Source: a virus (Duplodnaviria; Caudoviricetes). From it: a stretch of DNA of 64,000 nt. The stretch covers positions 32,001 through 96,000 of the IMG/VR virus record IMGVR_UViG_3300031867_000006. One strand, given 5' to 3'. Under the pieces are notes generated by a model. That model was not told the DNA's origin. It saw nothing but the letters and a program-made list of their open reading frames with translations, and did no database searches. The translations under genes and the position numbers were made by a program. Shown here piece by piece: positions 13,146 to 62,148 of the stretch; the first letter of the stretch is position 1, and every line of letters begins with the position of its first letter.

Positions 13146-13859
13146 TTAACCTCCGAAATAGTCTACATTCATTCCGTCGGTAAAATCTTTCCTCTTTGTT
13201 ATTGATTTGTACTGGTTATAGCAACATAATTGATTAGCATATTTTAAATCAATTTCCATTCTTGGTAATACTGAATAATATTTGCGTAATGTAGCGTCTA
13301 CTACAACAATATCGTCTATCCATACATTCTGCGTGAACGCATCTGAATAGCTCTTCTCGATATTATCAAAGTCAGGTTTAATCATAGGCCTAATTAAGCC
13401 TATTTCAGCAAGGAACGTGTCGACTCTATTATAAGCCGCCGGTGTGGGAAAATATGCTTTGTATTCTATATCACATGGAGTACAAAGCAATTGCTCAAGA
13501 TGGCTTAAGTGCTCTTTGGTTATCATACTCATATATTCTCTATTCTGTCTACCAGTAATTGAATATACTTGTATAAATCCATTGAGTCCAGTCACAGCAT
13601 TTACAATACCTTTCTTATTGATTAGCCTAGCACGAGGTCTAGGTGTATATTCAGGTATTTCATAAAGAACTAATCTTATGGTTTCATAATATGTAGAATC
13701 AATGAAGTTTTGTCTAGAAGCAATTATCTGCTCTTGCATAAAGTCAGTTATTTTAAGAGTATCGCAAAGGTATTCTAACCTCTGTCTATAATCTCTAGGT
13801 ACATGACCATACTTCATTTCGTATTCAATCATTTTGGTCTTTTTACTTTTCTCCGCCAT
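13146..13859 (-). CDS. rusA: RusA-family Holliday junction resolvase
   Basis: PRPR motif and KPDFDNIEKSYSDAFTQNVWIDDIVVVD, the RusA catalytic signature (KPDxDNxxKxxxD...DD). Confidence 0.85.
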   Translation of the reverse strand: MAEKSKKTKMIEYEMKYGHVPRDYRQRLEYLCDTLKITDFMQEQIIASRQNFIDSTYYETIRLVLYEIPEYTPRPRARLINKKGIVNAVTGLNGFIQVYSITGRQNREYMSMITKEHLSHLEQLLCTPCDIEYKAYFPTPAAYNRVDTFLAEIGLIRPMIKPDFDNIEKSYSDAFTQNVWIDDIVVVDATLRKYYSVLPRMEIDLKYANQLCCYNQYKSITKRKDFTDGMNVDYFGG

Positions 13860-14151
13860 TGTTATCCTCTTCTTCAGGTGCCGCTAAGCACCTAAATACA
13901 TTAACGTTGCCTATAATGAGTTCTACAAATCTAAATATAAAGAAATCACTCTCATGTAAAACAACAGGTTTATAACCTTCCTTATAATAGATAGTATCAT
14001 TATCTGCTGTAACGTATACATTATCATAGTCTATTGGCTTAAATTTTTCTAAAATTTTAGCACTTCCTATTATTGTGAAGGATTCATAAGCCTTTTCAAA
14101 TATTTTTACTTTCTGGCTTACAAATCCATATAGTTGTGAGAATTCAATCAT
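13843..14151 (-). CDS. Hypothetical protein
   Basis: 102 aa, GGAGG RBS. Confidence 0.7.
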   Translation of the reverse strand: MIEFSQLYGFVSQKVKIFEKAYESFTIIGSAKILEKFKPIDYDNVYVTADNDTIYYKEGYKPVVLHESDFFIFRFVELIIGNVNVFRCLAAPEEEDNNGGEK

Positions 14152-14160
14152 ATAACCTCC

Positions 14161-14451
14161 TTAGATAAGCGGCAAAATATATACTCTATGAGGGTCACCA
14201 TAGAAATTAGTCTTAACCGTAACAAAATATATAGCGTTAGGACACTCTTCTGTAGGTTCTATGCGCTCTGTTGTAAAGCCATCTCTAGCTTTAAACGTTA
14301 TACGTATATTTGTTCGTATAGGTCTTATTCTTTCTATTGCCGTTTTGGGACCCAGTATTATTATCATTGCTGTTTCTGGTAGATCTATATGCTCATAAGT
14401 TTTAATCTTATCTATGGCATAATCGTATAGTTCTTTATGAGTCATAAACAA
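14161..14451 (-). CDS. Hypothetical protein
   Basis: 96 aa, AGGAGG RBS. Confidence 0.65.
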   Translation of the reverse strand: MFMTHKELYDYAIDKIKTYEHIDLPETAMIIILGPKTAIERIRPIRTNIRITFKARDGFTTERIEPTEECPNAIYFVTVKTNFYGDPHRVYILPLI

Positions 14452-16261: not shown

Positions 16262-19200
16262 CTATTCTGCAGCTATAGCTTTCATAGCATTAACCACACT
16301 AGCGAGAGACTGATCATTTAATTGATCTGTATATTTATCATATGTAGAAGTACCCTTTCCGGTAATCTGACGTTTAGTAGATTGTCCAGATTGAGCATTT
16401 GCAACGTCTTCTGCTGTAATCTCCACGTTAAGCTTCTTGTTAAGGATCTTAACGATAGTATTAAGCTTATCAGTATTATCTGCTATGGTCATCAGGAAGT
16501 TTATGATCTGTGTAAGATCTATATCGCTACCTTTGCCATATCTAGGTTTATCTGTACCCTTAGGATCTTCATAATAGAGTGAAGACTCTTTACTGCTAGC
16601 TGTCTTCTTTGCAGGAATATAATTAAGGGTTTGTCCACCTCTACCATATTTATATGAATCTTGTAACTGACCATACTTAGACAGAGGTTTAATACCATTA
16701 TCTCCCTTGCCAAACGGGCTAGTAAGAGGTTCGCTATTACGTCTCCAGATTGTTGTATAGCTAGGATGGCTAGAACCAGATACTCCAGGTGTTCTAAGAG
16801 CATTGGTAGAACCACCATTCCAAACCATATGTCTTCCGCCTTCATTATGAGAGAAGATTTCGGCATGACCATTTCTAGAGATAATATCACCCTTCTGGAG
16901 TCCTTCCCATCCGGGCCATCCCATCTTAGTAAATCCCTTAAGAGAAATTCCTGAGCCACTGGTCCAAGCACCTGAAGCGGGAGGCCAAATACCTGTTTCC
17001 ATAGCACCGGCCGCCATTGCTGCTGCACTTGTAAGACCAGTACAGTCATTTCTATACTTAAGTTTCTCACCATTGATAGTGATGGTTGACATCATGGGTG
17101 CTTGATAAGTAGGATTATTAGCAGCGATAGCTTTCTTAACTGTCTCGATAGTGCTAATCCAACTAGACATATCTCCACTTGCAGCTCCGCCACTTTGATA
17201 AGGTGATCCAGCATCTCCACCGCTATCACCAGTAGTGGTTGTTGTAGTGCTAGATGATGAAGACATTAATCCCATAGCCTTACCAATTTTAGACTCACTC
17301 ATAGTCTTAGTCAATGCATTGGTAAAAGCTGATAAAGGATCATCTGGCTGCTGTGTTGTCGTATCTATAGATGCTGCAGCTCCATTAACAACACCAGTAT
17401 CAGCACCGGTTGAAGCTGCAGAACCAGCATCTCCTGCAGGTGCATTTGCACTACCATAGCATACAGCCTTAGTAATTGTAGTATTACCCCATTCAGGATG
17501 ACAACTAGCCGTACCAGGATTAGCATGCATAGAAGCAGCAGCACCACCTTTTGATGAGCTATACCAAGTACGTTTATCTACAACGAATTCTACAATGCAT
17601 TTACCATCCAGATGGCCCCAAGTGTTGCAACCTTTGTCTGTAGGATTCTTAATATCTGCAATTATACATTTAAGAACCTTACCGTTTGCTTTATAGAAGT
17701 CTACCGCATCACCAACCTGACCGAATGTTGTGGTACATGCTATTGTATATCTACCATCAATGATACCAAATCCTTCAGAGTTAAAGTTCTGACCCTTAGC
17801 AGCTCTAAGCTTGTACTGTGCTGAAGATGGCGATGTTATGCATTGCCAGCCCATATAGCTATGCACGCCACCTAAACCTGCAGGAATATTGATAGTGGTA
17901 GGACCAGTGCCATACTTACCAATTCCATATATAGGTATAATTCCAGAACCTCTACCATAAGCAGATACACCAAGCGATGTCTTATTAAGTAGTGATCTAG
18001 TATCATATAATTGGTTATCATAAGGACTCTCGGGATCTTGTACAATAGATTTATTCCCAACAGTACCTGTTACAGTTACATAGTGTGGTGATTTACCAAA
18101 TGGTGTAGATGAGGATGTTCCTCTACCATCTGAACCCATGAGTACGGTTGGCATACCGCTGTTAATATTTTTCTCAAGAGTATTCCTATTATAGCTTATT
18201 TCTGAACCTAAACCATTCTTGCTAAAGTAATCTGTAAAGAATCCAGGTTTTGTACCACCATCAGTTTCTTTATATCCTCTAGATACAGCATAATTAGATG
18301 CAGCAACTATAGGATTCTTACCTCTACCAAATGATTCAAGAACATTGACTGCAGCTGCTGGACCACAAGCAGAGTCACCAATAGTCTGTCTAGATCTATC
18401 AGCTGAACTATTGTAAGGCAAATTAGCTATGGAAGAATCGATCTGTTTGGAGTATCCTCTACCATAAGTACCTGTACCAGTAACGAACTTCTTAGCGGCC
18501 TGCCATTTATCGTTCAGCCAATTGCCAGCACTTGTCTTAGCACTATCATAAGCTTTAGAAGCCTTATCAGCTTTATCTCCAACCCAATCACTAACACCAT
18601 CAGCAAGGTCTTTAGCACCATCTACAAAATCACCAATTTTGTCTTTAACGTCATCGATGAAATTAAGCATGGGTTCAATTATCATATTGAATATACCCTT
18701 GATAGAACCACCAATCTTGCTTAAGCCAAGACTCATACTCCATACACCCTTAATAGGATCTCCGTCAGTTAAGTCTGCTTTAACATCCCATATTGATTTG
18801 ATATCATTCATGGATTTAACGTTATCAGCAGCTTTATTAATAGATTCTTGAGCATTATTTACTGCATTTGCATTAGTTCTAGATTTATCCATAGCACTTG
18901 TGAAAGCACTACTAATCTTACCACCAATCCAATGTAAACCAGCTCCAGGAACCTGTGTAAGTTTATATATTGTAAATAATCCCTTGTTTAAACCTGCCAT
19001 TGGATCACCTTCGGTAGGCGTAAACTCGGCACTCCATAATCCCTTAATATCTCCAGCCGCAGCTTTCTCTTTCACTGCTGGTATATTACTACCAAGCGAT
19101 TCGAATCCAGCCTTTGCTTTAGATACTATAGATTTAACAGCATCTGATACTTTATGACCAGCCCAAGATATGGCAGCTATAGGTACGCTGTATATCTTAG

Positions 19201-22200
19201 TAAAATGGTATAATGCAGTATTGATTCCAGAAAGAGGATCATTCTCTCCAGCCTCATAATTAGATGTAAGTATTCCAATAGGATCGCCAGACATCATCTT
19301 ATCTTTTACATTACCTGCATTGGTAAGTAAACTATTAAATGAACCCTTAACCCCATCTACTACTTTGCCAGCAAATTTCTTAATCTCATTAGCTATACGC
19401 TTAACAAGCATTATAGGGAATGACATAATTCTAGCGCCAAATGCAGCTGTATGAGCCATACCAGAAAGAGGTCCTTCCGGAGCAGCATCAATCTTAAGGA
19501 AATCAGTAAGACTACTATTAGGATCTTTTATGAGGGCTTCACCCTTCTGTTCCTGCTCAGCAATATACTTGCCGTAATCAACTGCCTTATTAACAGCTTT
19601 CGTAACGCCTTCCTTCACTGCAGTTCCAGCGTTCTTAGCTAAATTAATAGCATTAGAGCCAAGCTCTTTAGCTTTGTCAACCGCAAAAGCACCAGCTTTC
19701 TTGATGTTGGAACCTAACGCCTTAGCGCCTGCTTTAATTGCTTTGCCAGCCTTCTTAACTCCAGATTTAATTGCTCCGCCAATTCTGCCAGTTACAGAAT
19801 GCTTTTTCTTAAGATACTCTTCCTTAGTATCTGTAGATCCAGTCTTCTCAAGATAAGCCTGATATTCAGCATCTGCTTCTTTTTGACGCTCTTCGAGATC
19901 ATCACCCATGAGCTTAAACAGATTAGAGCAAATCCACGGTACACCCGGGATCACTGCAGGAATAATCAAAAGGTTAGCTAATGCATTAACTAAACCACAG
20001 CCTAACTCTTCGAGCAAGTTAGTATCAGAAACACCAAGTATAGACTCAGCCTGATCACAACCTGTAACAAAGTCTGCTATAAGGAATGCTACAGTTACAA
20101 TAAGATTAAGCTTAGAAGCAGCATTTTTAAGCAAAGCCTCGCCAGCTTCTGCACTACCTCTACCAATTGCTTTTAAGAAAGTCTCAGAAACCTGTTTCTT
20201 TAACTTAGCAGCATATTTCATAGCGTTCTCGCCAACAGCTTTAGCAGCTTTTGCTAATCTATTCTGTACAATAGGACTATTAAAGAGATTGTCTAATCCC
20301 TTAACAAGAGCATCCTTCATTTTAGCAACTACAGATGCAACCTTATCAGATTTAGATAATCCACCACCAGCACCTTCCATCAATGCTCTAGTAGCATCAT
20401 CAGCACTATTAATGAATTCACCCTTCTTTACGAAGTCTCCAACGCTTTTCTTAACAGCATCTTTAGCACCTTTGATTCTATTAACAACAGTCGCTCCCTT
20501 GGAACCATTCTCAAAGAATGTTTCGCCAGCAGCTTTCCTTCCAATACCTTTACCGATATCACCAGCTGCTTCAAGAGGTGTTGTAATAGCTTTACCAATA
20601 ACACCACCGGCTTTACCAAGTACAGATTTAGACTTAAGAAGCTTACCACTAAATTTAGAAACTTGTGTTACGAGTGGACTTCCGCCAACTGCAGCAGCAT
20701 GAGCCATTCCATTTGCTGTAACTTTAGCATAGCTTGATCCCTTAAAGCTAGGGTCTTTAAATGCAAGATTTCCATCTTTATCAATATAACCTTCAGTACC
20801 ATCAACATTATAGATCTTACTATACTGACCATTGGCTATCTGTCCATATGTAAGCTGATTACCATTCTCGTCATACATTCCAGATAATGTATCAGCTCCA
20901 TATTTCTCAACAAGTTCTTGTAATCTATTAGTAGAATACTTATTCTTAAAACCTACATTGGTCTTATTACCAGTAACATTATCCATTACTGTTAAAGCAG
21001 CTCCAGCAGCACCGCCAGGTCCATTACTGGGACCACCATCTTTATCACCATCACCACTGCCAAAGATAGCATCATGAATAATATCTCCAAGAGACTTATC
21101 GCCAAATAATGCTTCTTTTATAGAAGAACCGATATTAACAAGAGCAGTGCCAATTGCTGGTATTGCAGTTCCTGTTATCCAAGGCACAACCTTTTCAGTA
21201 ATCCAGGGATGTAATACCTTTTCCCATATAGGTTTAATAAATCCATCATAGATCTTCTTAAGAATTCCAGACTTCCAAAGCAAGTAACCACCGAATAACA
21301 TAGCAAGCGGATTAAGCTTTGTGCCTTTACCTTCTTCATCCATATTATCAAACATGGAGTTGAATCTATCAGACATCTTCTGCTGAGCAGTATGCAACTT
21401 CTCTGCAGCCGCATCTTTAAGCTTCTTGGCTGTTACAATAGCTTTAGTCTTAGGATCAGTAGTATCAGGATCAATAGATCCATCATTACTTTTCTTAAAT
21501 ATCATAGCTTCGCCATCGGCATTAATAATAGGCATCTTTCCATCGCCTTTATCATCAAGATCTCCGCCTAATACAGAAGAACCACCACCGGCCGAACCAG
21601 CTTCTTCTTTCTGTCCAAACGGAAGCATATCTTTTAATGCTTTAGCTTTCTTAGCACCGCCAAGCAAGGACTTGCCGGCACCTAAGATACCTTTACCGAT
21701 AGCGCCAATACCTTTAGCAGCAGCACCTAAGAGGAATGTACCAATACCATTAGATTCAATTTCCTCAGTATCAGCATTCTGAGTTAATCCCGTTTTAAGA
21801 TTTTGTCTTTCCACAGGAGATATTTTATCAACTCCCTGAATAGAATCATATGTAGTCCATAATTTAGCTTTAACTATCTCTTTGCATTTAGCATTAAGAT
21901 CATTTAAGTTAAACATATTAAGGGTTAATAAATAAGCAAGCTCATCCTTATTTACAAGTTTACCTCTACCCTTTGCACTTCTTGCTGCAAAGTAATGACT
22001 AATATATTTATAATCAGAGAATATACTATAAATAGTCTTAATCTCCTTTTCAGTAAGTTCATTATGAATATAATTATGAGCATCGCTATCAAATCTCATT
22101 TTGAATTTAGCAAATTGATTAATCTCTGCTAAATTATCAGAAAGATTTGCTCTGGTTTCGCCATTTCTAATAGCTTTATTAATATCTCTCCCAAGCTTAC

Positions 22201-25200
22201 GCTCTCCATGAACAGCAGCAATAGCATTAGCTCCAAATCTAATAGCTGCAGTTCCTGCAGTTAGCGGGCTCATAGCTATTCTTCTAACATCGTCAATACC
22301 AGTACCAATTAAATTCCTAGCTTTACCAAGTTTACCTTTATATTTAAAATCGGCAGACACACCATGTATACCAATTTTTCCAGGTATATTAGTAATATCA
22401 TCAGTATGAAATCCAGTACTACGTGTCAAATGATCTTTAAATTCATCTGTAAGCTGTCTATCATCACTACCGAACCATTTATCAATTCGTTTCTGATAGA
22501 TAGCATCGTATTTCTCATTAACCTTCTCAAGAGATTCATCGAATTTGGCAGACATTTTATTTACAATATCTTGAAGCCCACCATCTTCTCCATCAGCAAT
22601 TTTAATACCCTTAGTAGCAATATCACTAACAAATCCTTTAATATCAGCTACATTCTCAGGAGTTTTTAATTGCATACTCTGATCAACTTGATTACCTGCT
22701 TCTCTATTAGTAATCTCAGTATTAAAGTTCTTTACAAGTTTAGATATGTCATATCTACTACCAAGATTAACCTTCAGACCCATATTCTTGAATGTATCTT
22801 CAAGTTCAGCTCTGGTTTCGGCTAACTCTCCTTCTGTAAGCTTTCCAGCTCTAGCTTTACGCTCTCTGATATCAACATAGCCTTTAAGTTTAGATTGAAG
22901 ACCGGTATCCCCTTCCATAAGACTTTCAAGTTCTTTTTCACTGATACCAGTTGAAGAACCAGAAGTTCTATATTTCTGAAGTACTGCAGGAATCTTATCT
23001 ATTTCACCAGCGTCTAAATGCTTTCTTATTTGCTTAAGAGCGGCTCCACTAAGTTTATTACCATTACCATCTCTATAGTTATTAAGAATTGAATCTATCT
23101 CTTTGCGTCGCCTATTAGATTCTCTTGTAAGACTAGCATTATTATCAGAAATGTCTTCAAGCTTCCTAACCATATCCTTGGCATCTTCTAATGATAGGTC
23201 TCCCTCTGCAGAACCGCCAATGTTAGCAAGCATTCTATCAAAGTCACTTACTTTATTACCACGCTTATTATTCATTTGCCATTCGATACGCTCAGCAGCA
23301 GTCATATAATCTGCTTCTCCACGTTCGATAGCTTTACCTCTAATACGATCACCTGCAACTCCAAAAAGCTTAAGTGGGCTAGTAGCAATATTAAATGCCT
23401 TCTTACCTAACCATAAACCAGCACGAGCCGGCGCAGTAGCAGCTTTAGTAACTCCGAGTATAGATCTAGATAAAGTACCAGCTAACCCTTCATCACTTTC
23501 AGCCCATTCAGTAATCTTTCTAGGTATAGAACCAAGCGCTTTAGGTAATGCATGTATAGCAGGTACTGTAAATTTGTTTAATGGAAGAATTATATTCTTC
23601 TCAATTGTATTCATCAGATCATCTTTAAATGATAAAGCTGATTTGGTTAATGGTTCAAAAGCATCTGATAAGAATCCAACCAGTCCACCTTCTCTAACAC
23701 CATTAACATCTATACCAAGGATCATGTCCTTGAACTCGTCGGTGGTAGTCATCATGCCTAAACCAGCACCGATAGCCATATTACCAACTAATCCGAAAGG
23801 ACCACCAAATACAAGTCCGGCAATTGCTCCGCCAGCAGCACCTTTAGCAGCCCCAGGAAGTAACTGCTTAAGAATATCTGTTTCTTTGCTAGATAACTTA
23901 AGAGATCCACCCTCACCAAAGTACTTCTGCATGAAAGTTTCATTATTCTTAAGTAATCCAATAGTACCACCAACAAGAAGTCCGCCTATAGGACCTAATG
24001 GTGTAAGCATACCAGGAATAATTCCAGCAAGACCATACTTAACCATATCCGGGAAGTACTTCTTGAATGTATCCTGAAGATCTTTAGATATAATTCCACC
24101 AGAACGCGACTTGCCATCTTCCCCAAGTTTACCAAACAGCTTATCCTTAAGGAACGTAGAATTCCTAATAATATTAACACCAGCGCCTAATGCAGCTCCA
24201 AATAAAGGACCACCAACAACCATTCCAAGAGCTCCACCAGTTGCACCACCAGCCAATGCTTCTGGAGCATACTGCTTAGCTTCTTTCAGGAAGTCTTTAA
24301 CTGTAACATCACCATTGGAAATATCAATACTTCCACCAGCATGTTTTGCTACAGATAATCCCATTCTCTTAGCCATTAATTCTTCTCGACCAAGATCCTG
24401 CTGTTTACCAACCAACCCCTTAGGATTATAAATATGAGTATAATCACCAAGCCCATAAGCTCCAGTCTTAGGTACAGTTCCTCTATAGTCTAATACGTTA
24501 GGTGAACCATCGCCATTTACACCGTAGAGTTGCTCTCCTTTGGAAAGCATAGTAATACCCTTAAATGGAGCTTTGAATGTACCTTTAGCATGTTGCTGTA
24601 CATTAACTCGTTCTATGCGAGTAATAAGCATATTCTTATGCTTATTTTCATCATATCCACCGCGAGAAGCAGCCATACGTAACTCATCGATCTTAGTATC
24701 TGAAACTCCAAGCTTACGGCATTCCTCCTCAAGCTCTTCAGGAGTCATAGCTAACATCTTACGATAATCTCTACTAGCATAAGCTTTATTAGGACTATAT
24801 AAAACACTTAATCTCTCATCACGCTTCTCTTTTGTAGCTAAAGCATCGTTCTTCTTAACCCAACCAAGTTCACCTGATTTTGTTAATCCTTGCTGCCAAC
24901 CCTTAGCAGTCATTCTTTCCATAGCCGCTCTATTATTGCTTCTGATAGTAGCAGCATTCATTGGCTCCTTAATATATTTATCATATACAGGACCATAGAC
25001 TTCTTTATTAGCATTGACAAACATCTTGCCAAGACCAATAAATTGATCTTTAAGAGATTCAGTAAATCTATCCTTGAAATCGTCACCTAAACCAAGCTTT
25101 TCTTTAAGAGGGTCAAAGATTGTATCTTTGAGATAATCGCCGGCTTTAGTAAACAGATCATTGGTTTTGCCAATAAGCATTTCCATAAAGCCGCTATACT

Positions 25201-27733
25201 TATTCTTATCGCCATCTTGGTCAGTGCCTTCAATTTCAGTTCTGTAGAATATTTCATATATATTTTTATCAGCAGCATAAATAAGATCTGTCATAGCAGT
25301 GGTCATACCACCAGCTACAGCAGCTGTAATAGAACCATATTTATTAAGAGCTCCAGATATCTTAGTAAAGATATTTTTCTCTTCCGGAGTTTCTAATTCA
25401 TTGGTTTCTTTCTCAGCCTTCTTAGCCTCACGTTCAATATCATCTCTTGTAATAAACTTACCACCGTAAAGCTTTTCGTTAAGAGCTTTGCTTAATGCAT
25501 TGCTATTAACTTTATTCTTCATATCACGGTTATAAGTATCTGTATTTACATCGATAAGAAGATCTGCTAAGTGCTGAAGTGCTTCTGTATCTTCATCACT
25601 AAATCTGGAGAAATCAACAGCCTTACCTTCGAGGATATTCTTTATAGCTTTACGTTTGATCTCTTCATCTTTATTCTGTCTATCAGCAACACTAGTCTGA
25701 GGTTTATTAGGATTAGTAAGACTAATATTCTTAAAGTCTACTTTAACAGCATTATCTGCAACTGTACCACCAGTACCAGCAACAACTCCGCCGTTAACTC
25801 TAGCCCAGATAAGTTCCTTATTAATATTCTGAAGATAATTAAATAAGGAATTGCCATACTCATCCTTAATCTGAAGTAATGGAGAAGAACCTTCCCATTT
25901 CTCAGATTTAGAATCGCCTATTTTAGTCCACTTTCCAGCAGCTCTATCAGATTTAGATGTAGATTCATCCTGGAAGATAGTTGTTATAGTATCCGTAACT
26001 CCAGAATTAATACTGTCTATAATCCTCTGCTCCTGAGCTTTTGAATCAAGAACCTGACGAGAATTCATAAGCTTAGAATAGTCAGTAACTACATTACCAC
26101 GTCTATCTCTACGCTTAGCAGAATTCTTATAGATATCAGCAATCTCTTTATAATGCCTATAGAATGCCGGATATTCAGCATAGCTAACATCATTCTTTGT
26201 AGGCGTTGCATTAGGATTAAATATACCATTGTTATTATAGAGATACATCTGGAACTCAAGCATAGCCTGATTGATCTCATCAATTTCAGCCTGAGACTGT
26301 GCTCCTGCCTTACGTATATTTAATCCAGTTGTCATGTTAGCTTTAACATCAGCTGTAGCAGACTGAATAGCATTATTCTTAATATCATCATATCTTCTTC
26401 TTATAGCTCTAGCATCAGTAAATTTACCAGAGTTATAATCAAAGATTCGTTCAGGATTACTACTTAATACAGACTCAATCCTTCTCAAATATGCGGGGAT
26501 AACTTCAATGATAGCTTTACGAGTAATACCATCAAATGGGATTGGTCCCTTCTCATATTTAGAAGTATCTATAGATCTACTTACATTGGTATTTATACCA
26601 AATATCTTGGCTACCATCTCAAGAGGACCGCCTTTGCCGATCTGATTTCCAAGTGAACCTATAGCAGTAGCAAATGCGTTAGATATCGTTCCATTAAGTT
26701 CTTTAGTGGCTTCTTTAAGTGTAGCAGGAATAGCTGCTTTAACCATGAAATCGGTAATGAATCTTAATGGCGATGTCATCATAGCCATAAGCATATTGGA
26801 ATCTCCGCCCATTCCAGGCATAAGTGATTCCATTTCTTTATTGATATTAGTCTTTATATTCTTAAAGTAATTATCAATGTCAGGCATACCAGAACTGGAG
26901 ATTTCACTCCATTTCATAATACCTCTAGATTTCTGGTTTTTCTGAGCAGATTGCTTTTCTTTCTCCGCAGCAGACGTATACTGCTGCTTCTGAAGTTCTA
27001 GCATTTCCTTAAGTATAGAGTTGCGTTCTGTATCTAATTTAATAGATTCAGTAAAGTAACTGCTCATATTCTTATCCATATTTCCCAAGCTTGTCGCTAA
27101 AAGATTATGGATTGTTCCCATGGTAGAATTTACTACGGAGATATCATTATGAATGCCTCCGATGAGACGTTCATTCTGATTGTAAATCATACCAACGGAA
27201 GTTCTCATATTCTTAATCTGAGCATCTGATGCAGTCATTACAGCATTAACTGTAGCACCAGCGACAGCCTTATTAGATCCTTCTATAGCACTTGCTATAA
27301 TCTTATCTCCGGCTGTGACCTCTGATTTAGAACCTTGAGTGGATGTATCTTTAGATTTGCCATTAATAATGTCTTCCCAGTTGTCATCAATCCCGAACTC
27401 AGAAAGATCATTCATATCGTCGGCATCAATTCCAAGGAATTTACCAGCTTCTGCTTCGCGCTCTTTATTATAGAATTTACCAGTCTTCAAATCCTGGATA
27501 GCATTCTTCAAGCCATAATCAGCAGCTTGATAAATCTTAGAGTTCTTTACATAACCAATTGATCTGGTTATTGTAGTCGTAGGATGTCTAACTGCTTTAT
27601 ATACATTGACAAACGCATCCTTATTAGACGCAGCAAAATCTATCATTTCAGGAGCATCTTGCTTTGCAGTATCTACTGCACTATAAGCAATGGATTTCAT
27701 TACATTTTTCATGTAGTTATTACGAAGCGCCAC
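16262..27733 (-). CDS. Giant tape-measure-like virion protein with C-terminal peptidase C39-like, 3D/DPBB-like and NlpC/P60 domains
   Basis: About 3820 aa (probable GTG start 27733 after GGAGG). Long Gly/Ala/Lys helical body with glycine-zipper segments. Motifs QTIGDSACGP...PHYVTVTG...VQDP; GRYTIACTTTFGQVGD...IIADIK; NDCTGL...KGDIISRNGHAEIF. Confidence 0.75.
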   Translation of the reverse strand: MALRNNYMKNVMKSIAYSAVDTAKQDAPEMIDFAASNKDAFVNVYKAVRHPTTTITRSIGYVKNSKIYQAADYGLKNAIQDLKTGKFYNKEREAEAGKFLGIDADDMNDLSEFGIDDNWEDIINGKSKDTSTQGSKSEVTAGDKIIASAIEGSNKAVAGATVNAVMTASDAQIKNMRTSVGMIYNQNERLIGGIHNDISVVNSTMGTIHNLLATSLGNMDKNMSSYFTESIKLDTERNSILKEMLELQKQQYTSAAEKEKQSAQKNQKSRGIMKWSEISSSGMPDIDNYFKNIKTNINKEMESLMPGMGGDSNMLMAMMTSPLRFITDFMVKAAIPATLKEATKELNGTISNAFATAIGSLGNQIGKGGPLEMVAKIFGINTNVSRSIDTSKYEKGPIPFDGITRKAIIEVIPAYLRRIESVLSSNPERIFDYNSGKFTDARAIRRRYDDIKNNAIQSATADVKANMTTGLNIRKAGAQSQAEIDEINQAMLEFQMYLYNNNGIFNPNATPTKNDVSYAEYPAFYRHYKEIADIYKNSAKRRDRRGNVVTDYSKLMNSRQVLDSKAQEQRIIDSINSGVTDTITTIFQDESTSKSDRAAGKWTKIGDSKSEKWEGSSPLLQIKDEYGNSLFNYLQNINKELIWARVNGGVVAGTGGTVADNAVKVDFKNISLTNPNKPQTSVADRQNKDEEIKRKAIKNILEGKAVDFSRFSDEDTEALQHLADLLIDVNTDTYNRDMKNKVNSNALSKALNEKLYGGKFITRDDIEREAKKAEKETNELETPEEKNIFTKISGALNKYGSITAAVAGGMTTAMTDLIYAADKNIYEIFYRTEIEGTDQDGDKNKYSGFMEMLIGKTNDLFTKAGDYLKDTIFDPLKEKLGLGDDFKDRFTESLKDQFIGLGKMFVNANKEVYGPVYDKYIKEPMNAATIRSNNRAAMERMTAKGWQQGLTKSGELGWVKKNDALATKEKRDERLSVLYSPNKAYASRDYRKMLAMTPEELEEECRKLGVSDTKIDELRMAASRGGYDENKHKNMLITRIERVNVQQHAKGTFKAPFKGITMLSKGEQLYGVNGDGSPNVLDYRGTVPKTGAYGLGDYTHIYNPKGLVGKQQDLGREELMAKRMGLSVAKHAGGSIDISNGDVTVKDFLKEAKQYAPEALAGGATGGALGMVVGGPLFGAALGAGVNIIRNSTFLKDKLFGKLGEDGKSRSGGIISKDLQDTFKKYFPDMVKYGLAGIIPGMLTPLGPIGGLLVGGTIGLLKNNETFMQKYFGEGGSLKLSSKETDILKQLLPGAAKGAAGGAIAGLVFGGPFGLVGNMAIGAGLGMMTTTDEFKDMILGIDVNGVREGGLVGFLSDAFEPLTKSALSFKDDLMNTIEKNIILPLNKFTVPAIHALPKALGSIPRKITEWAESDEGLAGTLSRSILGVTKAATAPARAGLWLGKKAFNIATSPLKLFGVAGDRIRGKAIERGEADYMTAAERIEWQMNNKRGNKVSDFDRMLANIGGSAEGDLSLEDAKDMVRKLEDISDNNASLTRESNRRRKEIDSILNNYRDGNGNKLSGAALKQIRKHLDAGEIDKIPAVLQKYRTSGSSTGISEKELESLMEGDTGLQSKLKGYVDIRERKARAGKLTEGELAETRAELEDTFKNMGLKVNLGSRYDISKLVKNFNTEITNREAGNQVDQSMQLKTPENVADIKGFVSDIATKGIKIADGEDGGLQDIVNKMSAKFDESLEKVNEKYDAIYQKRIDKWFGSDDRQLTDEFKDHLTRSTGFHTDDITNIPGKIGIHGVSADFKYKGKLGKARNLIGTGIDDVRRIAMSPLTAGTAAIRFGANAIAAVHGERKLGRDINKAIRNGETRANLSDNLAEINQFAKFKMRFDSDAHNYIHNELTEKEIKTIYSIFSDYKYISHYFAARSAKGRGKLVNKDELAYLLTLNMFNLNDLNAKCKEIVKAKLWTTYDSIQGVDKISPVERQNLKTGLTQNADTEEIESNGIGTFLLGAAAKGIGAIGKGILGAGKSLLGGAKKAKALKDMLPFGQKEEAGSAGGGSSVLGGDLDDKGDGKMPIINADGEAMIFKKSNDGSIDPDTTDPKTKAIVTAKKLKDAAAEKLHTAQQKMSDRFNSMFDNMDEEGKGTKLNPLAMLFGGYLLWKSGILKKIYDGFIKPIWEKVLHPWITEKVVPWITGTAIPAIGTALVNIGSSIKEALFGDKSLGDIIHDAIFGSGDGDKDGGPSNGPGGAAGAALTVMDNVTGNKTNVGFKNKYSTNRLQELVEKYGADTLSGMYDENGNQLTYGQIANGQYSKIYNVDGTEGYIDKDGNLAFKDPSFKGSSYAKVTANGMAHAAAVGGSPLVTQVSKFSGKLLKSKSVLGKAGGVIGKAITTPLEAAGDIGKGIGRKAAGETFFENGSKGATVVNRIKGAKDAVKKSVGDFVKKGEFINSADDATRALMEGAGGGLSKSDKVASVVAKMKDALVKGLDNLFNSPIVQNRLAKAAKAVGENAMKYAAKLKKQVSETFLKAIGRGSAEAGEALLKNAASKLNLIVTVAFLIADFVTGCDQAESILGVSDTNLLEELGCGLVNALANLLIIPAVIPGVPWICSNLFKLMGDDLEERQKEADAEYQAYLEKTGSTDTKEEYLKKKHSVTGRIGGAIKSGVKKAGKAIKAGAKALGSNIKKAGAFAVDKAKELGSNAINLAKNAGTAVKEGVTKAVNKAVDYGKYIAEQEQKGEALIKDPNSSLTDFLKIDAAPEGPLSGMAHTAAFGARIMSFPIMLVKRIANEIKKFAGKVVDGVKGSFNSLLTNAGNVKDKMMSGDPIGILTSNYEAGENDPLSGINTALYHFTKIYSVPIAAISWAGHKVSDAVKSIVSKAKAGFESLGSNIPAVKEKAAAGDIKGLWSAEFTPTEGDPMAGLNKGLFTIYKLTQVPGAGLHWIGGKISSAFTSAMDKSRTNANAVNNAQESINKAADNVKSMNDIKSIWDVKADLTDGDPIKGVWSMSLGLSKIGGSIKGIFNMIIEPMLNFIDDVKDKIGDFVDGAKDLADGVSDWVGDKADKASKAYDSAKTSAGNWLNDKWQAAKKFVTGTGTYGRGYSKQIDSSIANLPYNSSADRSRQTIGDSACGPAAAVNVLESFGRGKNPIVAASNYAVSRGYKETDGGTKPGFFTDYFSKNGLGSEISYNRNTLEKNINSGMPTVLMGSDGRGTSSSTPFGKSPHYVTVTGTVGNKSIVQDPESPYDNQLYDTRSLLNKTSLGVSAYGRGSGIIPIYGIGKYGTGPTTINIPAGLGGVHSYMGWQCITSPSSAQYKLRAAKGQNFNSEGFGIIDGRYTIACTTTFGQVGDAVDFYKANGKVLKCIIADIKNPTDKGCNTWGHLDGKCIVEFVVDKRTWYSSSKGGAAASMHANPGTASCHPEWGNTTITKAVCYGSANAPAGDAGSAASTGADTGVVNGAAASIDTTTQQPDDPLSAFTNALTKTMSESKIGKAMGLMSSSSSTTTTTTGDSGGDAGSPYQSGGAASGDMSSWISTIETVKKAIAANNPTYQAPMMSTITINGEKLKYRNDCTGLTSAAAMAAGAMETGIWPPASGAWTSGSGISLKGFTKMGWPGWEGLQKGDIISRNGHAEIFSHNEGGRHMVWNGGSTNALRTPGVSGSSHPSYTTIWRRNSEPLTSPFGKGDNGIKPLSKYGQLQDSYKYGRGGQTLNYIPAKKTASSKESSLYYEDPKGTDKPRYGKGSDIDLTQIINFLMTIADNTDKLNTIVKILNKKLNVEITAEDVANAQSGQSTKRQITGKGTSTYDKYTDQLNDQSLASVVNAMKAIAAE

Positions 27734-27767
27734 TAGGTTCACCTCCCTTCATTTGGGTTATTTTAAT

Positions 27768-27779
27768 TACAGTAATGTC
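27768..27779 (-). promoter_or_regulatory. Late-type promoter GACA-N6-TA
   Basis: GACATTACTGTA. Confidence 0.6.
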
Positions 27780-27829
27780 AAATCTAACAAAAAATAACAG
27801 GCTATGGGTTAATTAAGCAAAAAAGAATC

Positions 27830-27851
27830 CCCTAGGGATTTCTCCCTAGGG
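27830..27851 (-). terminator. CCCTAGG-family terminator
   Basis: CCCTAGGGA-tttc-TCCCTAGGG followed by a T-tract on the minus strand. Confidence 0.75.
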
Positions 27852-27903
27852 TGTTAGAAAGGAATATATGTTTAACAAGGCGTCTATGCCATTGATTGCC
27901 TAA

Positions 27904-28434
27904 TTACTTAAGCCAGGAAGGGCAAGAACCTGCAACGCTGAGTGTCTCATAGCTGGGAACCTTTGTAGACTGCTTAGAATATGCAGGCGTTCCATCAGGA
28001 TTAACACCAGTCTTAATGGGGAATGTTGATACAGACTCAGGCTTGATCTTAAGCTTAAGAGATACGTCGCTCTTTTCACGCTTTCCAAGAGGAAGCTTCC
28101 TGCCAGTATGAAGATAGGTATTGATAAACTCCTTAGAAATTCCAACCATAGCTGTAGCATCAGCCTTGGTGAATTCGTAACCAGCTGCAAGAGTCTGAGC
28201 CTCTGCCTTGGGAATAGAACCAGCTCCAGCAAGGATATCAGTAGCAATTACAACTGCATCTTCACGAGGGCAGTACTGTCCTTCAACGCCAGACTTGCCG
28301 TAGATATCAACCTTATAATCCGGATCATTAAGCATTGCTCTCATTACGCTGATCTCATCTGCCTTGGATGCCGATGACTGTGTCTTCTCAGTATCAATTT
28401 TCTTTACAAGGTCTGTTACTTTAATTTGTTCCAT
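27904..28434 (-). CDS. Hypothetical protein, possibly HU-like DNA-binding
   Basis: Start MEQIK at 28434 with GGAGG; C-terminal TGVNPDGTP...KVP arm loosely resembles the HU GRNPxTGE...IP arm. Confidence 0.4.
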   Translation of the reverse strand: MEQIKVTDLVKKIDTEKTQSSASKADEISVMRAMLNDPDYKVDIYGKSGVEGQYCPREDAVVIATDILAGAGSIPKAEAQTLAAGYEFTKADATAMVGISKEFINTYLHTGRKLPLGKREKSDVSLKLKIKPESVSTFPIKTGVNPDGTPAYSKQSTKVPSYETLSVAGSCPSWLK

Positions 28435-38651: not shown

Positions 38652-39290
38652 TCAGTCTTCGATGATCTCATAAGTGAATCTACCATATGAGCCATTGCGC
38701 CACTGGCCGAGTCCATTATACTTACCGAAATCAAGCCATTCGTATACTGCCTTCTCAAGCTTGTCATTCAATAGTCTGATAACAAACTCTGCTGTTGCTC
38801 CTTCGTGGATCATTTCGCTATTAGCGAGAGATATACGAGGACCCTGCGCTGTCTCGGCACGCAATGATCTCTGAAGATTATCCATCTCTCCATCATATGA
38901 GATAGGTATCTTGCGAAGCGCAGCATCAGCATTAAGATTACCATCTTTGTCAGGCCCATAGACGAATACCATACCATCTATATATTTCTTATGGGCTTTG
39001 ATGCTGGCTGACGCGTTCTTCTCACCAAGCAGCTTAAGAATGCCGCAGGCATGCTTGAAGAACCCGCGGATCTGGTAATCCCAAAGCAAGGGGTTTCCAT
39101 CTTCATCACGAAGGAATACTGTTTTGCCCTTACGCTCAACTTCCTCAGTACCTAACGCTTCGATCTCTTCTTGCTTATTAGGAGCATCGGGCGCATTACT
39201 AGCAATATACTGACTATAGATGTCAGGATCGCTAGGTGCTGAGCCAAGAACTGGTGTTGTAAAGGTTATTCTAATCTTGATATCTTTCAT
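38652..39290 (-). CDS. Stand-alone RAMP/Cas7-like RNA-binding protein
   Basis: N-terminal beta strand IRITFTTPVLG, middle PLLWDYQIRGFFKHA helix, and C-terminal Gly-rich loop GLGQWRNGSYGRF, all characteristic of RAMP/Cas7-group proteins. Confidence 0.75.
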   Translation of the reverse strand: MKDIKIRITFTTPVLGSAPSDPDIYSQYIASNAPDAPNKQEEIEALGTEEVERKGKTVFLRDEDGNPLLWDYQIRGFFKHACGILKLLGEKNASASIKAHKKYIDGMVFVYGPDKDGNLNADAALRKIPISYDGEMDNLQRSLRAETAQGPRISLANSEMIHEGATAEFVIRLLNDKLEKAVYEWLDFGKYNGLGQWRNGSYGRFTYEIIED

Positions 39291-39369: not shown

Positions 39370-39535
39370 GCGATGAATTGTTGGTTAAGTAGCGCTACAT
39401 ACAGGACTGGATCTGCAGAATACTATGATAATCAATACAAATTACAAATGTTTTGTTTAATAAATCCTGGATCTAATAATTTGGCTGGTAGAGAAATGGC
39501 TAATAATTTCCATAATGATGGAATATATTACGGCG
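39370..39535 (+). repeat. Solo variable-region cassette A
   Basis: GCGATGAATTGTTGGTTAAGT...TATTACGGCG; encodes AMNCWLSSA...GIYYG; 163 bp GCG to GCG; no RBS. Confidence 0.8.
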
Positions 39536-42186: not shown

Positions 42187-42346
42187 GCGATGAGTTGGTG
42201 GTTTAGAGGGGCTACAAAAACTCTTACTAATTATAATCCACTTAATGGTTTCTTTGGAGTAGAAAATTGTAAGAATATTAATAATGCTGATTATGCTTGG
42301 GCTGCATATGATCCTAATAATGGTAATAAAATAATGAATAACGGCG
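42187..42346 (+). repeat. Solo variable-region cassette B
   Basis: GCGATGAGTTGGTGGTTTAGA...AATAACGGCG; encodes AMSWWFRGA...IMNNG; 157 bp GCG to GCG. Confidence 0.8.
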
Positions 42347-58218: not shown

Positions 58219-60197
58219 ATGGCTAATAAACGATTTAATATAAGCCAATTGGATCAGAAAAGGTTCATTAAAGTTAATGATAGCACATTAGAAGTTACTA
58301 ATCCTGCCATGTTTAACGCTACGAATGGACCAACGCCAGATGGCTTATTAAGTAATACAATATTTGGTATCACCAAAGCTGAGCGTTCTGGTATATATGG
58401 ATATATAGATCTTAAGGAGAAGTTTATCAATCCTTACTTCTATAAGATATGGCTTAAAATAGATAATAAAGTACGTGGATTAATCTATGAAACAGAAACC
58501 TTCTCTATAGATAAGCATGGCTATCTTGTTCAAGATGATAATGGTCAGACCGGTATAAAGTTTATCGAAAAGAATATTCAGGACTTTAAGTTTAAAGATA
58601 CAAAGCAGAAGCACTTTGTGGAAGCTCTCATGAAGGGCGCTAAAGATGGCTTATTCTTTACAGATAAGCTTATTATTATCCCTCCATTCTATAGAGATGT
58701 AGATACATCTGGAGGTGGTCGTATAGGTGTTGGTGAAGTTAATAAGCTATATATTAACGTTCTTAATAAGGTTAAAGCATTGCAAGATGCTAGCGATTAT
58801 GGATTCGATATCAAGGGTGGTATCAGAGGACAAATCCAGGATATTCTATTAGAGTTATATAACTGGTTTACTCTTGGTGAGACTACTATAGGTGGTGAGC
58901 ATACTGGCTCTGGCATATTTAAGAAATTTGGTAGTATGCGAAGATCTGTAATGGCTAAGACTGCAGATTATAGTAATAGATTAGTACTCTCTGCAGCGGA
59001 TACTAATGTAAATAGCAAAGAAGAACTAATGGTAGATTTAGACTATTCTGCTATACCATTAGCATCTGCTTTATCTGTTGCATATCCATTTGTGGTTTAT
59101 AATCTAAGACAGTGGTTTAATAATGAGTTTGGTGGAAAGACTCATTATGACTATATTGATAAAGATGGTAAACCTCAGCAGGTTGAATTAGATAATATCC
59201 TTATTGAATTCTCTGATGATAGAATCGATAAGGAGATTAATGAGTTCATTCATGGATACTCTAATAGATTTAAACCTATAGAAGTGCCCAATAAGGAAGG
59301 TAAGAAGATTTATGTACGCTTTAAGGGTTATTCTATTACTAGAGAGGAATACGCTAAAGGCGTAAGAGAGAATGATACTCTTATAGACAGAGATATAACC
59401 TGGTGCGATTTATTTTATATAGCCGCGTGTGAAGCAACTAAAGATAAATATGCTATTATAACAAGATATCCCATAAGTATGAATTGTGGCATCACATTGG
59501 AAACAGTGTGTTGAAAAATCCATTGAATTGCTGGGAAAGGCTAAAGCTTAGATTCCTATAACGGTGAAGAAATTCAGAAACAATATCTAAGATTGATTAA
59601 TGATGAAATACAAGCCTATATTTAGGTTCTACAATCAATTAATGTCTAATCAGCATCCAGAAATACTGGTTCAACGACTAACCCTGGAATGGGTGTAGGG
59701 CTATTCAATAGTTCGAAGTGATGGAGACCTAAGTCTTATATAGATATGGTCGTGATATAGTCTAATCTTTATGTAACTCATAAAGCTGAATCTTATAATG
59801 AGATTCATACTTCAATAATTTATATAGCAAGGTTCATATATCTTCTACAAATAAGACAGAGCCTGTTGTTATAGATGGCGAATTCTATCAGTGGTATCCA
59901 ATGATACGTCAGAATGATATTGGTGAGAATACATCTAATAGATTTGTAGATACTTGCAATATCTGCAATCTATACTGTAAAGGCATGGGTGCCGATTACG
60001 ATGGTGACACGATATCAGATAAGCTTATGTTTACCAATGAAGCTAATGCCGAGCTTGAGAAATATGTAAATTCCAACGCTCAGTTTATAGCCTTAAATGG
60101 TGTAAGCTTAAGATACCCTTCCATGGAGGCAGTCCAAGCTATATATAACCTTACACTTACATTAGATCAGAATCAATTAACAGATCCAAAGTTCTAA
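58219..60197 (+). CDS. rpoC: Multisubunit RNA polymerase beta'-like subunit, spliced: join(58219..59474,59801..60197), 550 aa
   Basis: GLLSNTIFG, GYIDL..NP, IIIPPFYRD, KTADYSNRLVL, spliced TRYPIDSYFN, catalytic GADYDGD; late promoter 58183-58194. Confidence 0.88.
59475..59800 (+). ncRNA. Group I intron (326 nt, no homing endonuclease)
   Basis: P AATTGCTGGGAA, Q AATCAGCA, R GTTCAACGACTA, S GATATAGTCTA; exon ends in U and intron ends in G; intron 5' AAGTATGAAT is complementary to 3' exon ATTCATACTT (P10). Confidence 0.92.
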
Positions 60198-60204
60198 TAT
60201 TAAT

Positions 60205-60227
60205 ACCCTAGGCTTATAGCCTAGGGT
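60205..60227. terminator. CCCTAGG-family terminator left of the cassette array
   Basis: ACCCTAGGCT-tat-AGCCTAGGGT followed by a T-rich tract. Confidence 0.75.
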
Positions 60228-60252: not shown

Positions 60253-62077
60253 GCGATAACATTGGCTACGGTTTTAAGATCAATGGCATCCTCTTCATCT
60301 CCAGAAGTTTGTATGGTTGGCTGGTTAGATTCTGGTAAAGATAGGCCTTGGTCTGCAGCATTACATGATAATGGTAGTACATTATATAATTACGGCGCGA
60401 TGGAATGGTGGTTAAGGGGAGCTGCTGATCATGGTTTATCAATACCTCCGCATATAACAAATGGAGTATTTACAATGGTATCTAAAGATGCTAGATCTGA
60501 AAGGGTTAATGCTTATACTCAAAGTAATATAACTAATGGAGTTAAATACGGCGATGTATTGGTGGAGTAGAACTAGCACGTACTATCCAGAAGCCCCTAA
60601 TCATTCTGATAATAAAATTAGATTTAATGCTAAAGCTGATGGTGAAGAACATATATGGACAATTCCAGCTTATAGTTGGAATGGTGTTGATGTAGTAATT
60701 GTCGGCGATGAATTGTTGGTGGTTTAGATCAGGATGTTATGTATATATAACTGGAGGTGGTTGGCCAGCTAGGTCTGATAAATCTGCATTCGTTATGTAT
60801 ATGAAAGAAAGGAATCCACCAGTATGGGCTCATTGTGCTAATTTTACATATGTATATGATATTAGTACACCATGTAATTACGGCGATGGAATTGGGATGG
60901 TTATTTAGATCATTTTATGATGTAAGGACACAACCTTCAAATTATTTAAATAAAGATGGAACTGGATATTGTGTATATTGCCAAAGCTATAATAATACTT
61001 CTGGATTAAATTGGATTGCTTATCCTATAAATAAGCCAACTGATAGATATTATTACGGCGATGAGTTGGTGGGAAAGATCTGGCTATAAGCCTGACAAGG
61101 CATCATTTTGTTGTTCAGGATATTATAATACACCTAATGGAACACCTCAAGGTACTAATGCTGCAAAACATAGTGGTACTGGACAATTATTTAATCTCGG
61201 CGATGGAATGGTGGTTGAGGACTTGCCCAAATCATGATATAAATGCTGGTGCTTTAGAAAATAATAAGTCTGTTATAAGTTGCGTTTGGGCGGATGGTAA
61301 GAGTTATTATGCTATACAAGGCGGTAATGGCTATTATGTAAGAAATTTCGGCGATGGATTATTGGGATAGATCTGCTTCATCGAAAATAGTGCAATGTTA
61401 TTAATATTTTCAACAGATGATAGATTTATAAATACAGGTTGGAAAGTTCCGGCATATAAATTCCCTAGTGGTATTGATTGTATTTACGGCGATAATTTGT
61501 TGGTTAAGAAGTGCAGATTATAAAAGTATACCGTGGTATGGCACTCAATATGATAATAAAGATGTGAGTTTTATTTATATTAGCCCAGATGGTTCAGTAA
61601 ATTGTACTGTTGCATGCCATGGATCATCTAGCCCTAGTAATTACGGCGATGTATTGGAGAACAAGAACTAGTTCATCTCAAGCTGGCGATTGGGCTACAG
61701 ATAATAAAAGTTGTTATATGTGTATTAATGGTACTTATGTAATTAAAGCGGTGAATACATATGCTGCAACTAGTGTCGGCGATAACTTGGTGGAATAGAT
61801 CCGCTGCTGGAAACCATTGGAAATATAAAACTATTGGATTTACTGAAACTACTATTGATGGAGTATCAGACTTTAATTATGCGTGGAGATGGGAATCTGC
61901 TGAACCATATCAAATAATATATCACGGCGATGGATTGGTGGACAACTAGTGCTATGTCTGTATATGCTAATATTTATCATAGTGGTAGCACTGGTAAAGA
62001 TTATTGCCCTATAGATAATAAAGGTGAACCATCGTATCAATTTGCTGGTAATTGTGGATATAATATAGATTTCGGCG
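60253..62077 (+). repeat. Tandem array of 12 variable-region cassettes (CLec/DUF6273-like W-W-x-R-S...G segments)
   Basis: CGGCG(AT) at 60393, 60549, 60703, 60881, 61056, 61198, 61349, 61487, 61644, 61777, 61925, 62073; each unit reads A-[MI]-x-W-W-x-R-[STG]...[YFVLH]-G (degenerate in some). Confidence 0.88.
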
Positions 62078-62093
62078 TTTAAAAAAAGAAGCA

Positions 62094-62115
62094 CCCTAGG
62101 CAATTAAGCCTAGGG
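62094..62115. terminator. CCCTAGG-family terminator right of the cassette array
   Basis: CCCTAGGC-aattaa-GCCTAGGG; T-tract on the minus strand. Confidence 0.75.
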
Positions 62116-62148
62116 CAATTATTAATGGAAAACAATAAATATGAATAA

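Follow-up and report, generated by a model that had tools for sequence, protein, structure and literature searches.

Cassettes for DUF6273 variable regions, bounded by a CGGCG core, form a probable silent library of binding-site alleles in a jumbo phage genome

Phages vary their receptor-binding proteins by DGR mutagenesis, by invertible segments and by modular recombination with other phages. Shufflons and other invertible segments (R64 Rci/pilV, Mu Gin, P1 Cin) keep alternative C-terminal ends of a receptor-binding protein silently in their own genome. Cellular pathogens follow a different scheme for surface proteins, exemplified by tprK in T. pallidum, pilE-pilS in Neisseria and vlsE in Borrelia. 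Clustered, promoterless, sub-genic donors code for alternative versions of the exposed variable regions within a protein family; they are arranged in tandem, mostly in the same orientation, and some are decayed. For tprK, 53 donor sites are clustered at tprD (PMC7593977). Integron arrays are likewise tandem and promoterless; a short conserved core connects their mutually unrelated coding cassettes, and cassette content and order vary among close relatives with breakpoints at that core. With the lack of promoters and the surface exposure presumed, the cassette arrays described here have all of these last features as well as those of the pathogen donors, and by analogy they would work most like silent-cassette segmental gene conversion and like integron arrays. 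Their host is a lytic-type jumbo phage and not a cellular pathogen, and we could not find a description of such arrays in phages in the literature. A self-contained archive of pre-formed, complete binding-site alleles, swapped at a core of 5 nt, would add a principle to phage variation, conceptually near antigenic-variation cassettes and integrons but acting inside a protein domain.

The DNA analyzed here (the window) is a stretch of 64,000 nucleotides from a single viral contig of 165,769 bp with a CheckV completeness of 59%; genome coordinates equal window positions plus 32000. The phage, which is uncultured, is distantly related to jumbo phages of the AR9/PBS1 type, which encode their own RNA polymerase, as this one does. 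Array A occupies window positions 60253-62077 on the plus strand and consists of 12 head-to-tail units (A1-A12) joined via common CGGCG cores. The units start at 60253, 60397, 60551, 60705, 60883, 61058, 61200, 61351, 61489, 61646, 61779 and 61927, the last one ending at 62077, and from A1 to A12 they are 145, 157, 157, 181, 178, 145, 154, 141, 160, 136, 151 and 151 nt long. Every unit has the form GCGAT[AG]...GGCG, and the unit bounds are marked by the near-invariant CGGCGATG. Eleven of the 12 are 3n+1 nt long and free of stops in the frame set by their own GCG. The remaining one, A8 (61351..61491, plus strand), is decayed, with a length of 141 nt (3n) and two in-frame stops. Terminator-like hairpins lie on both sides of the array: one (60205..60227, plus strand) follows the RNA polymerase β' gene directly upstream, and the other (62092..62117, minus strand) belongs to a convergent 195-aa gene directly downstream. 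A preliminary description had reported 12 units with common ends, a list of their peptides, stop-free interiors in all but the eighth unit, and flanking hairpins, and each of these points is borne out. Because most neighbors in array A have a GCG in common, the reading frame moves by +1 per unit, as at the A1/A2 junction, which reads GGCGCGATG in frame. A ribosome exiting one unit would hit a stop 6-14 codons into the next, which it would read out of frame.

A search with the junction motif shows that the contig carries 26 such units, 25 of them intact, in arrays A, B and C and as two solitary copies. Arrays B (genome 162378-161473) and C (genome 155859-154939) are on the minus strand and have six units each. 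The solitary cassettes, s1 (window 39370..39535) and s2 (window 42187..42346), are on the plus strand and have the same cores. Cassette s1 starts ~80 bp past the start of an ORF at 38652-39290 (minus strand), and behind it lie a stop codon and a T-run hairpin; s2 is located in the divergent gap between a gene for a Big_2 protein and a 561-aa gene. Array B and both solitary units start 65-95 bp from a divergent gene start. The probability that a unit interior is open by chance is 0.7-11% (mean 3%), giving a joint value of ~1e-40 for the 25 intact units, and the remaining two frames of the units contain 1-14 stops each. Comparison of the array flanks revealed no common element and no attI/Pc platform shared at the array heads, and annotation of the neighboring genes revealed no common partner gene.

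Judging from codon use and copy number, the CGGCG core is a DNA-level signal. The alanine codon at the unit start is GCG in 26 of 26 units, although GCG makes up 8% of the alanine codons in the long ORFs of the genome, and the glycine codon ahead of every junction is GGC, which accounts for 19% of glycine codons genome-wide. The CGGCGATG sequence occurs 22 times in the genome versus 1.1 expected, and 21 of the 22 copies are at boundaries of cassettes or of the tip gene discussed below. The core is followed by ATG in 23 units and by ATA in three. The position of the ATG, after "GSA", is unconstrained in the wider family (N, Y, T, E, S or V), and the conserved ATG is therefore not explained by the protein fold. 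GGCG precedes even the first unit of each array and the last unit ends in CGGCG-T, so the core bounds the unit on both sides. We also considered an adenine footprint in the cassettes, which the differences between moved cassettes do not support. The NNC codon before GGC reflects the C conserved in the core. Pattern scans of IMG/VR and JGI metagenomes, using the junction or three cores at cassette spacing, gave no 3n+1 array among the matches listed, which are single chance matches or in-frame GC-rich repeat proteins.

The retained ATG counts against a silent library, as start codons would fit it too. Each unit could be a mobile small gene of ~50-65 aa, starting with the ATG right after the core, moving in integron-like fashion and translated in place; any likeness to a DUF6273 variable region would then reflect origin only. 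The stop codon and terminator directly after s1 agree with such micro-genes, and gene callers predict the unit ORFs. However, an SD-like motif is found upstream of only one of the 26 units, as opposed to 80 of 120 real, long ORFs, in line with the lack of an RBS noted in the preliminary description. The three ATA units, which all stay open, are also at odds with translation in place, and the interior ones, A9 and A11, are open across their 50-53 codons. Furthermore, each ORF would extend 6-14 out-of-frame codons into the next unit, a 50-aa loop segment without the scaffold or the final V-x-P-F-C strand is unlikely to fold, and the same segment is found in frame inside a DUF6273 domain. Given the missing SD motifs, the missing fold scaffold and the ATA units, we regard independent translation, which had been named earlier as a point to check, as improbable. 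Sigma-70-like sites are at chance level, but the phage has its own RNA polymerases, which makes the absence of promoters, noted in the preliminary description, a presumption. The constant +1 offset at a conserved sequence might also bring to mind one long repeat protein, produced through serial programmed +1 frameshifts at every junction. The chance of this is very low: NNC-GGC-GAT provides no slippery or hungry-codon context, the array has no start or RBS, ten consecutive shifts would be needed, and cassettes also occur singly and in the tip gene.

The silent-library reading draws support from what the cassettes encode. No mutual similarity is detectable among unit interiors, either as DNA or as protein, as had been noted by eye. 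Nonetheless, aligned units have a common architecture, in which A-M-x-W-W-x-R-S is followed by a variable loop, an aromatic-Cys/Val strand, a second variable loop and G, and the inner F-C/V strand of the DUF6273 family is present across cassettes. The cassette profile maps to the variable-region columns of a DUF6273 tip alignment (hhalign 93%, E 2.7e-7), a comparison in which the tip's own variable region (VR) is a row in both alignments. BLASTP with single units identifies DUF6273 proteins P0006, P0011 and P0007 at the C-terminal VR position (best match P0006, E 6e-7); Pfam searches with single units gave nothing significant. The DUF6273 domain has been described as C-type-lectin-like, with a C-terminal segment that serves DGRs of gut phages as the variable region (PMC10743442; bioRxiv 10.1101/2024.10.15.618418). 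The fold is assigned from this literature and not from an AlphaFold2 model of the 311-codon tip, which has a mean pLDDT of 59 and values below 50 over residues 215-304, being weak in the variable region. The preliminary description had placed WW-x-RS...G-V around the DUF6273/CLec variable region, and Pfam, BLAST, the profile comparison and the literature back this assignment. It had also called the interiors rich in Y, W, N, G and C; we find W, C, H, N, Y and G enriched and K, E and L depleted, the composition of a binding surface. Together with the open frames, this composition argues for selection on the coding content of the cassettes. In all likelihood, the cassettes form a silent library of binding-site alleles.

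The same genome contains a canonical DGR. Its target is a 915-aa Ig-repeat protein with a C-terminal DUF6273 domain (genome 22718-25465; Pfam DUF6273, 31.1 bits), in which the VR spans genome positions 25333-25459. The TR is at 26304-26430, with 17 of 18 VR/TR mismatches at TR adenines, and the reverse transcriptase (RT) gene is at 26756-28000. The GC content is 58% in the VR and 50% in the TR, compared with 36% for the genome, and the TR is directly followed by the core-like GGCGCTATG. The cassettes and the DGR concern the same segment of the same family, the C-terminal VR of DUF6273/CLec proteins, with the 5' boundary at the same codon. Unlike DGR repeats, the cassettes are unrelated to the TR, have lengths of 136-181 nt and differ from one another throughout, not at adenines only; the ~85-95% identity to the TR with differences at TR adenines that characterizes a DGR repeat is not seen in them. 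The expressed DGR target has no CGGCG cores, which counts against the silent-library reading.

A gene with matching anchors, which the preliminary description had advised looking for, is found ~10 kb from the DGR, inverted relative to the expressed target. This start-less DUF6273 tip (genome 13693-14628, minus strand) is a 311-codon frame that opens right after a stop, with a Pfam DUF6273 match at 13810-14193 (minus strand) of 23.3 bits (23.7 with neighbors; cut-off 23.5). The tip aligns collinearly with the final ~290 aa of the DGR target, and the similarity begins abruptly at a common 16-mer. Since the tip lacks a start codon at the homology boundary and its internal ATG is not preceded by an SD, it is taken to be silent. 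Its VR is framed by tcGGCGatg...aacGGCGtta, which are the cassette cores. These sit one base offset in frame, which results in the +1 shift per unit when cassettes chain through common cores. The VR of the tip has a GC content of 32%, close to the 36% of the arrays, and the tip body 43%. Thus silent partial copies and a locus with matching flanks, as in the silent-cassette systems, are both present, with that locus itself start-less. The only recipient with cores is itself silent, a further point against the silent-library reading. The preliminary description had envisaged an archive of binding-site alleles swapped into an expressed adhesin; the archive is supported, and the swap into an expressed protein is hypothetical, as the matching recipient is silent.

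Close relatives show the arrays in other states. The two contigs compared, L330 and L331, are short and were recovered via the cluster membership of called ORFs; searches for related loci with one protein at a time had yielded no relatives. At the array C locus, L331 is 96-97% identical in the flanks and carries four units versus six here, with periods of 151, 160 and 145, all 1 mod 3. Only its last unit matches one of ours (C6, 97.6%); the other three are absent from our contig. In L330 (JGI 3300037400), the right flank of array A is matched at 89% and the order is X-A11-A10-Y-end versus A9-A10-A11-A12-end here. Units A10 and A11 (window 61646..61929, plus strand) are 97% identical in L330 and reversed in order, the terminal unit Y is new, and unit X is frameshifted. 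At all five junctions compared in L330 and L331, the similarity switches on or off inside the core. The preliminary description had asked whether arrays would be identical across strains; they are not, with whole cassettes replaced, lost or reordered and breakpoints in the core. Furthermore, one cassette occurs both in the tip and in an array. The tip's 248-aa ORF falls into a cluster whose representative is P0139, a 60-aa protein from another, 54-kb JGI contig, and 50 of the 50 central residues of P0139 are identical to the tip VR in a protein-level comparison. P0139 is an internal array unit, which has other residues before A-M and continues after the final G into an out-of-frame reading of the next unit. 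The cassette system is real, statistically unambiguous and comparatively dynamic. We note that array A is equally long in three assemblies of this strain, which counts against exchange within the population. Unit Y of L330 (586-790) and unit 3 of L331 (861-1009), from the array A and array C loci, respectively, have a C-terminal half in common (~24 aa, roughly 75% identical), a likeness that hints at mosaic cassettes or exchange between arrays.

The RT is the only recognizable sequence-replacing enzyme in the contig, and the 5' boundary of the cassettes (GCG-ATG) is at the codon position where the TR/VR homology starts (GCG-AAT). Both facts make RT-dependent homing of cassettes attractive. The arrays would be banks of alternative TRs, and the DGR RT, or another RT encoded in the part of the genome that the contig lacks, would copy array RNA into the tip VR, with the short GC-rich 3' core acting like an IMH and the longer 5' anchor serving as homology. 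The resemblance of the sequence right after the TR to the core is in keeping with this, and transcription is likely at three of the five cassette loci. Nevertheless, the substitutions that separate shared cassettes with changed neighbors from their orthologs are of the ordinary kind and about as frequent as in the flanks: A is involved in 7 of 13, versus 18 of 46 in the flanks, so that moved cassettes show no adenine bias. The array flanks have no look-alike of the spacer downstream of the TR, the cassettes are not Asn/AAY-rich in addition to being unrelated to the TR, and the reordering of A10 and A11 is a DNA rearrangement within the store that retrohoming leaves unexplained. RT-dependent homing is therefore unlikely in our estimation.

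More distant relatives (63-70% identity in the adjacent polymerase subunit) have a 50-250-bp terminator gap at the site of array A and no cassettes nearby, and no empty CGGCG site is evident in this syntenic gap. One relative, the 236-kb phage G001, has seven complete DUF6273 paralogs in tandem (325-668 aa) at the locus syntenic with the DGR target (positions 2849-13888 of L329, G001:C1:103001-120000). All seven are preceded by an SD-like motif and combine a conserved MSAIVRN-type N-terminus with Ig-like repeats and a DUF6273 tip of their own. CGGCG is absent from these expressed paralogs, as it is from the whole 17 kb. Cores and arrays are thus specific to the present lineage. Such a distribution, with arrays confined to dispensable terminator or divergent gaps and missing in more distant relatives, would also suit a non-adaptive by-product. 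The arrays would then be selfish repeats, or debris left by template switching or aberrant recombination at microhomologies rich in GC, and would play no part in tropism. Two decayed units, A8 and unit X of L330, and the failure to find a dedicated enzyme point the same way. We give this explanation a low probability, because the open frames and the binding-surface composition indicate selected coding content, the core is kept even at synonymous sites, in contrast to the saturated interiors, and the strict 3n+1 spacing extends to the new units of the relatives.

The search for an enzyme, advised in the preliminary description as one for an RT or a recombinase, was successful for the RT of the DGR only. 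No integrase, resolvase, large serine recombinase, Y1 transposase, TnpB or RecT/annealing protein was found in the contig, which is 59% complete according to CheckV; searches of the contig with PF00589, PF00239 and PF07508 gave no match, and no recombinase, integrase or transposase gene is next to any array. In this, the system differs from integrons, which have an IntI-type tyrosine recombinase. It also lacks attC hairpins: nine junctions folded as ssDNA give z-scores from -1.6 to +2.2 and share no structure. The five loci are dispersed, with no attI or Pc in common, and the cassettes are in-frame domain fragments, not whole genes. Compared with tprK, pilS and vlsE, the units are complete VRs set by an invariant core of 5-8 nt in place of long conserved flanks, the stores are rearranged at the core, and the matching recipient is silent. 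Transfer in those systems is non-reciprocal, whereas exchange here is read from differences between genomes only. The 311-codon tip, inverted with respect to the expressed gene and sharing a 16-nt junction with it, resembles a shufflon; unlike in shufflons, the array cores are direct and not inverted, there is no recombinase of the Rci, Gin or Hin family, and the units replace an internal segment, which needs two junctions, and not just a C-terminal end.

Taken with these comparisons, array A may be viewed as one of at least five stores of silent coding cassettes that lack RBSs and presumably promoters. Each cassette would constitute a complete alternative variable region, that is, the ligand-binding loops, of a DUF6273 tail or decoration protein, and would behave as a discrete DNA module bounded by the CGGCG core, with CGGCGATG on the 5' side. 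Recombination at the core, either site-specific or guided by microhomology, would excise, insert, reorder and replace whole cassettes. With a core-to-core spacing of 3n+1, any cassette placed between the two cores of the recipient stays in frame, and within an array, reading through from one unit into its neighbor falls out of frame and soon meets a stop. Cassettes would move from the stores to the start-less tip, which could then replace the end of the expressed 915-aa fiber by inversion or conversion at the common 16-mer. We consider it reasonably probable that array A is a silent library of binding-site cassettes exchanged via core-directed recombination. More tentatively, and with somewhat less than even confidence, the system might be described as an "intragenic integron", where a putative phage-encoded enzyme cuts and pastes alleles at CGGCG(ATG) between dispersed stores and the receptor-binding tip, creating a heritable and reusable archive of specificities for host recognition beside the DGR and hierarchically linked to it, from store to silent tip to expressed fiber. 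An archive of this type would explain switching between very different specificities, rather than exploration around one template. The exchange of cassettes points to a putative core-specific recombination activity, and the in-frame grammar of the cassettes (CGGCG, 3n+1) could serve the engineering of phage host range in laboratory strains.

Several other features of this phage were observed. In the ENA assembly ERZ27256863 of the same phage, the DGR target (P0137, 907 aa, versus P0136, 915 aa) is identical through ...LHSIFE and then has a different C-terminal module of ~90 aa. Comparison of the two proteins supports a module exchange at the 915-aa target gene. The ENA assembly breaks near the variable region of the tip and just after the target gene; the former break is suggestive of heterogeneity and was not used as evidence. 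Upstream of array A, the RNA polymerase β' gene consists of a 431-aa piece (window 58219-59514) and a 98-aa piece (59901-60197), with a group I intron-like element between them at 59465-59783 (plus strand; Rfam RF00028, 27.9 bits, E 5e-5, under the gathering score). In most relatives, the β' subunit is one continuous protein of ~548 aa. Finally, a single open reading frame of 3826 aa spans window positions 16262-27742 on the minus strand.
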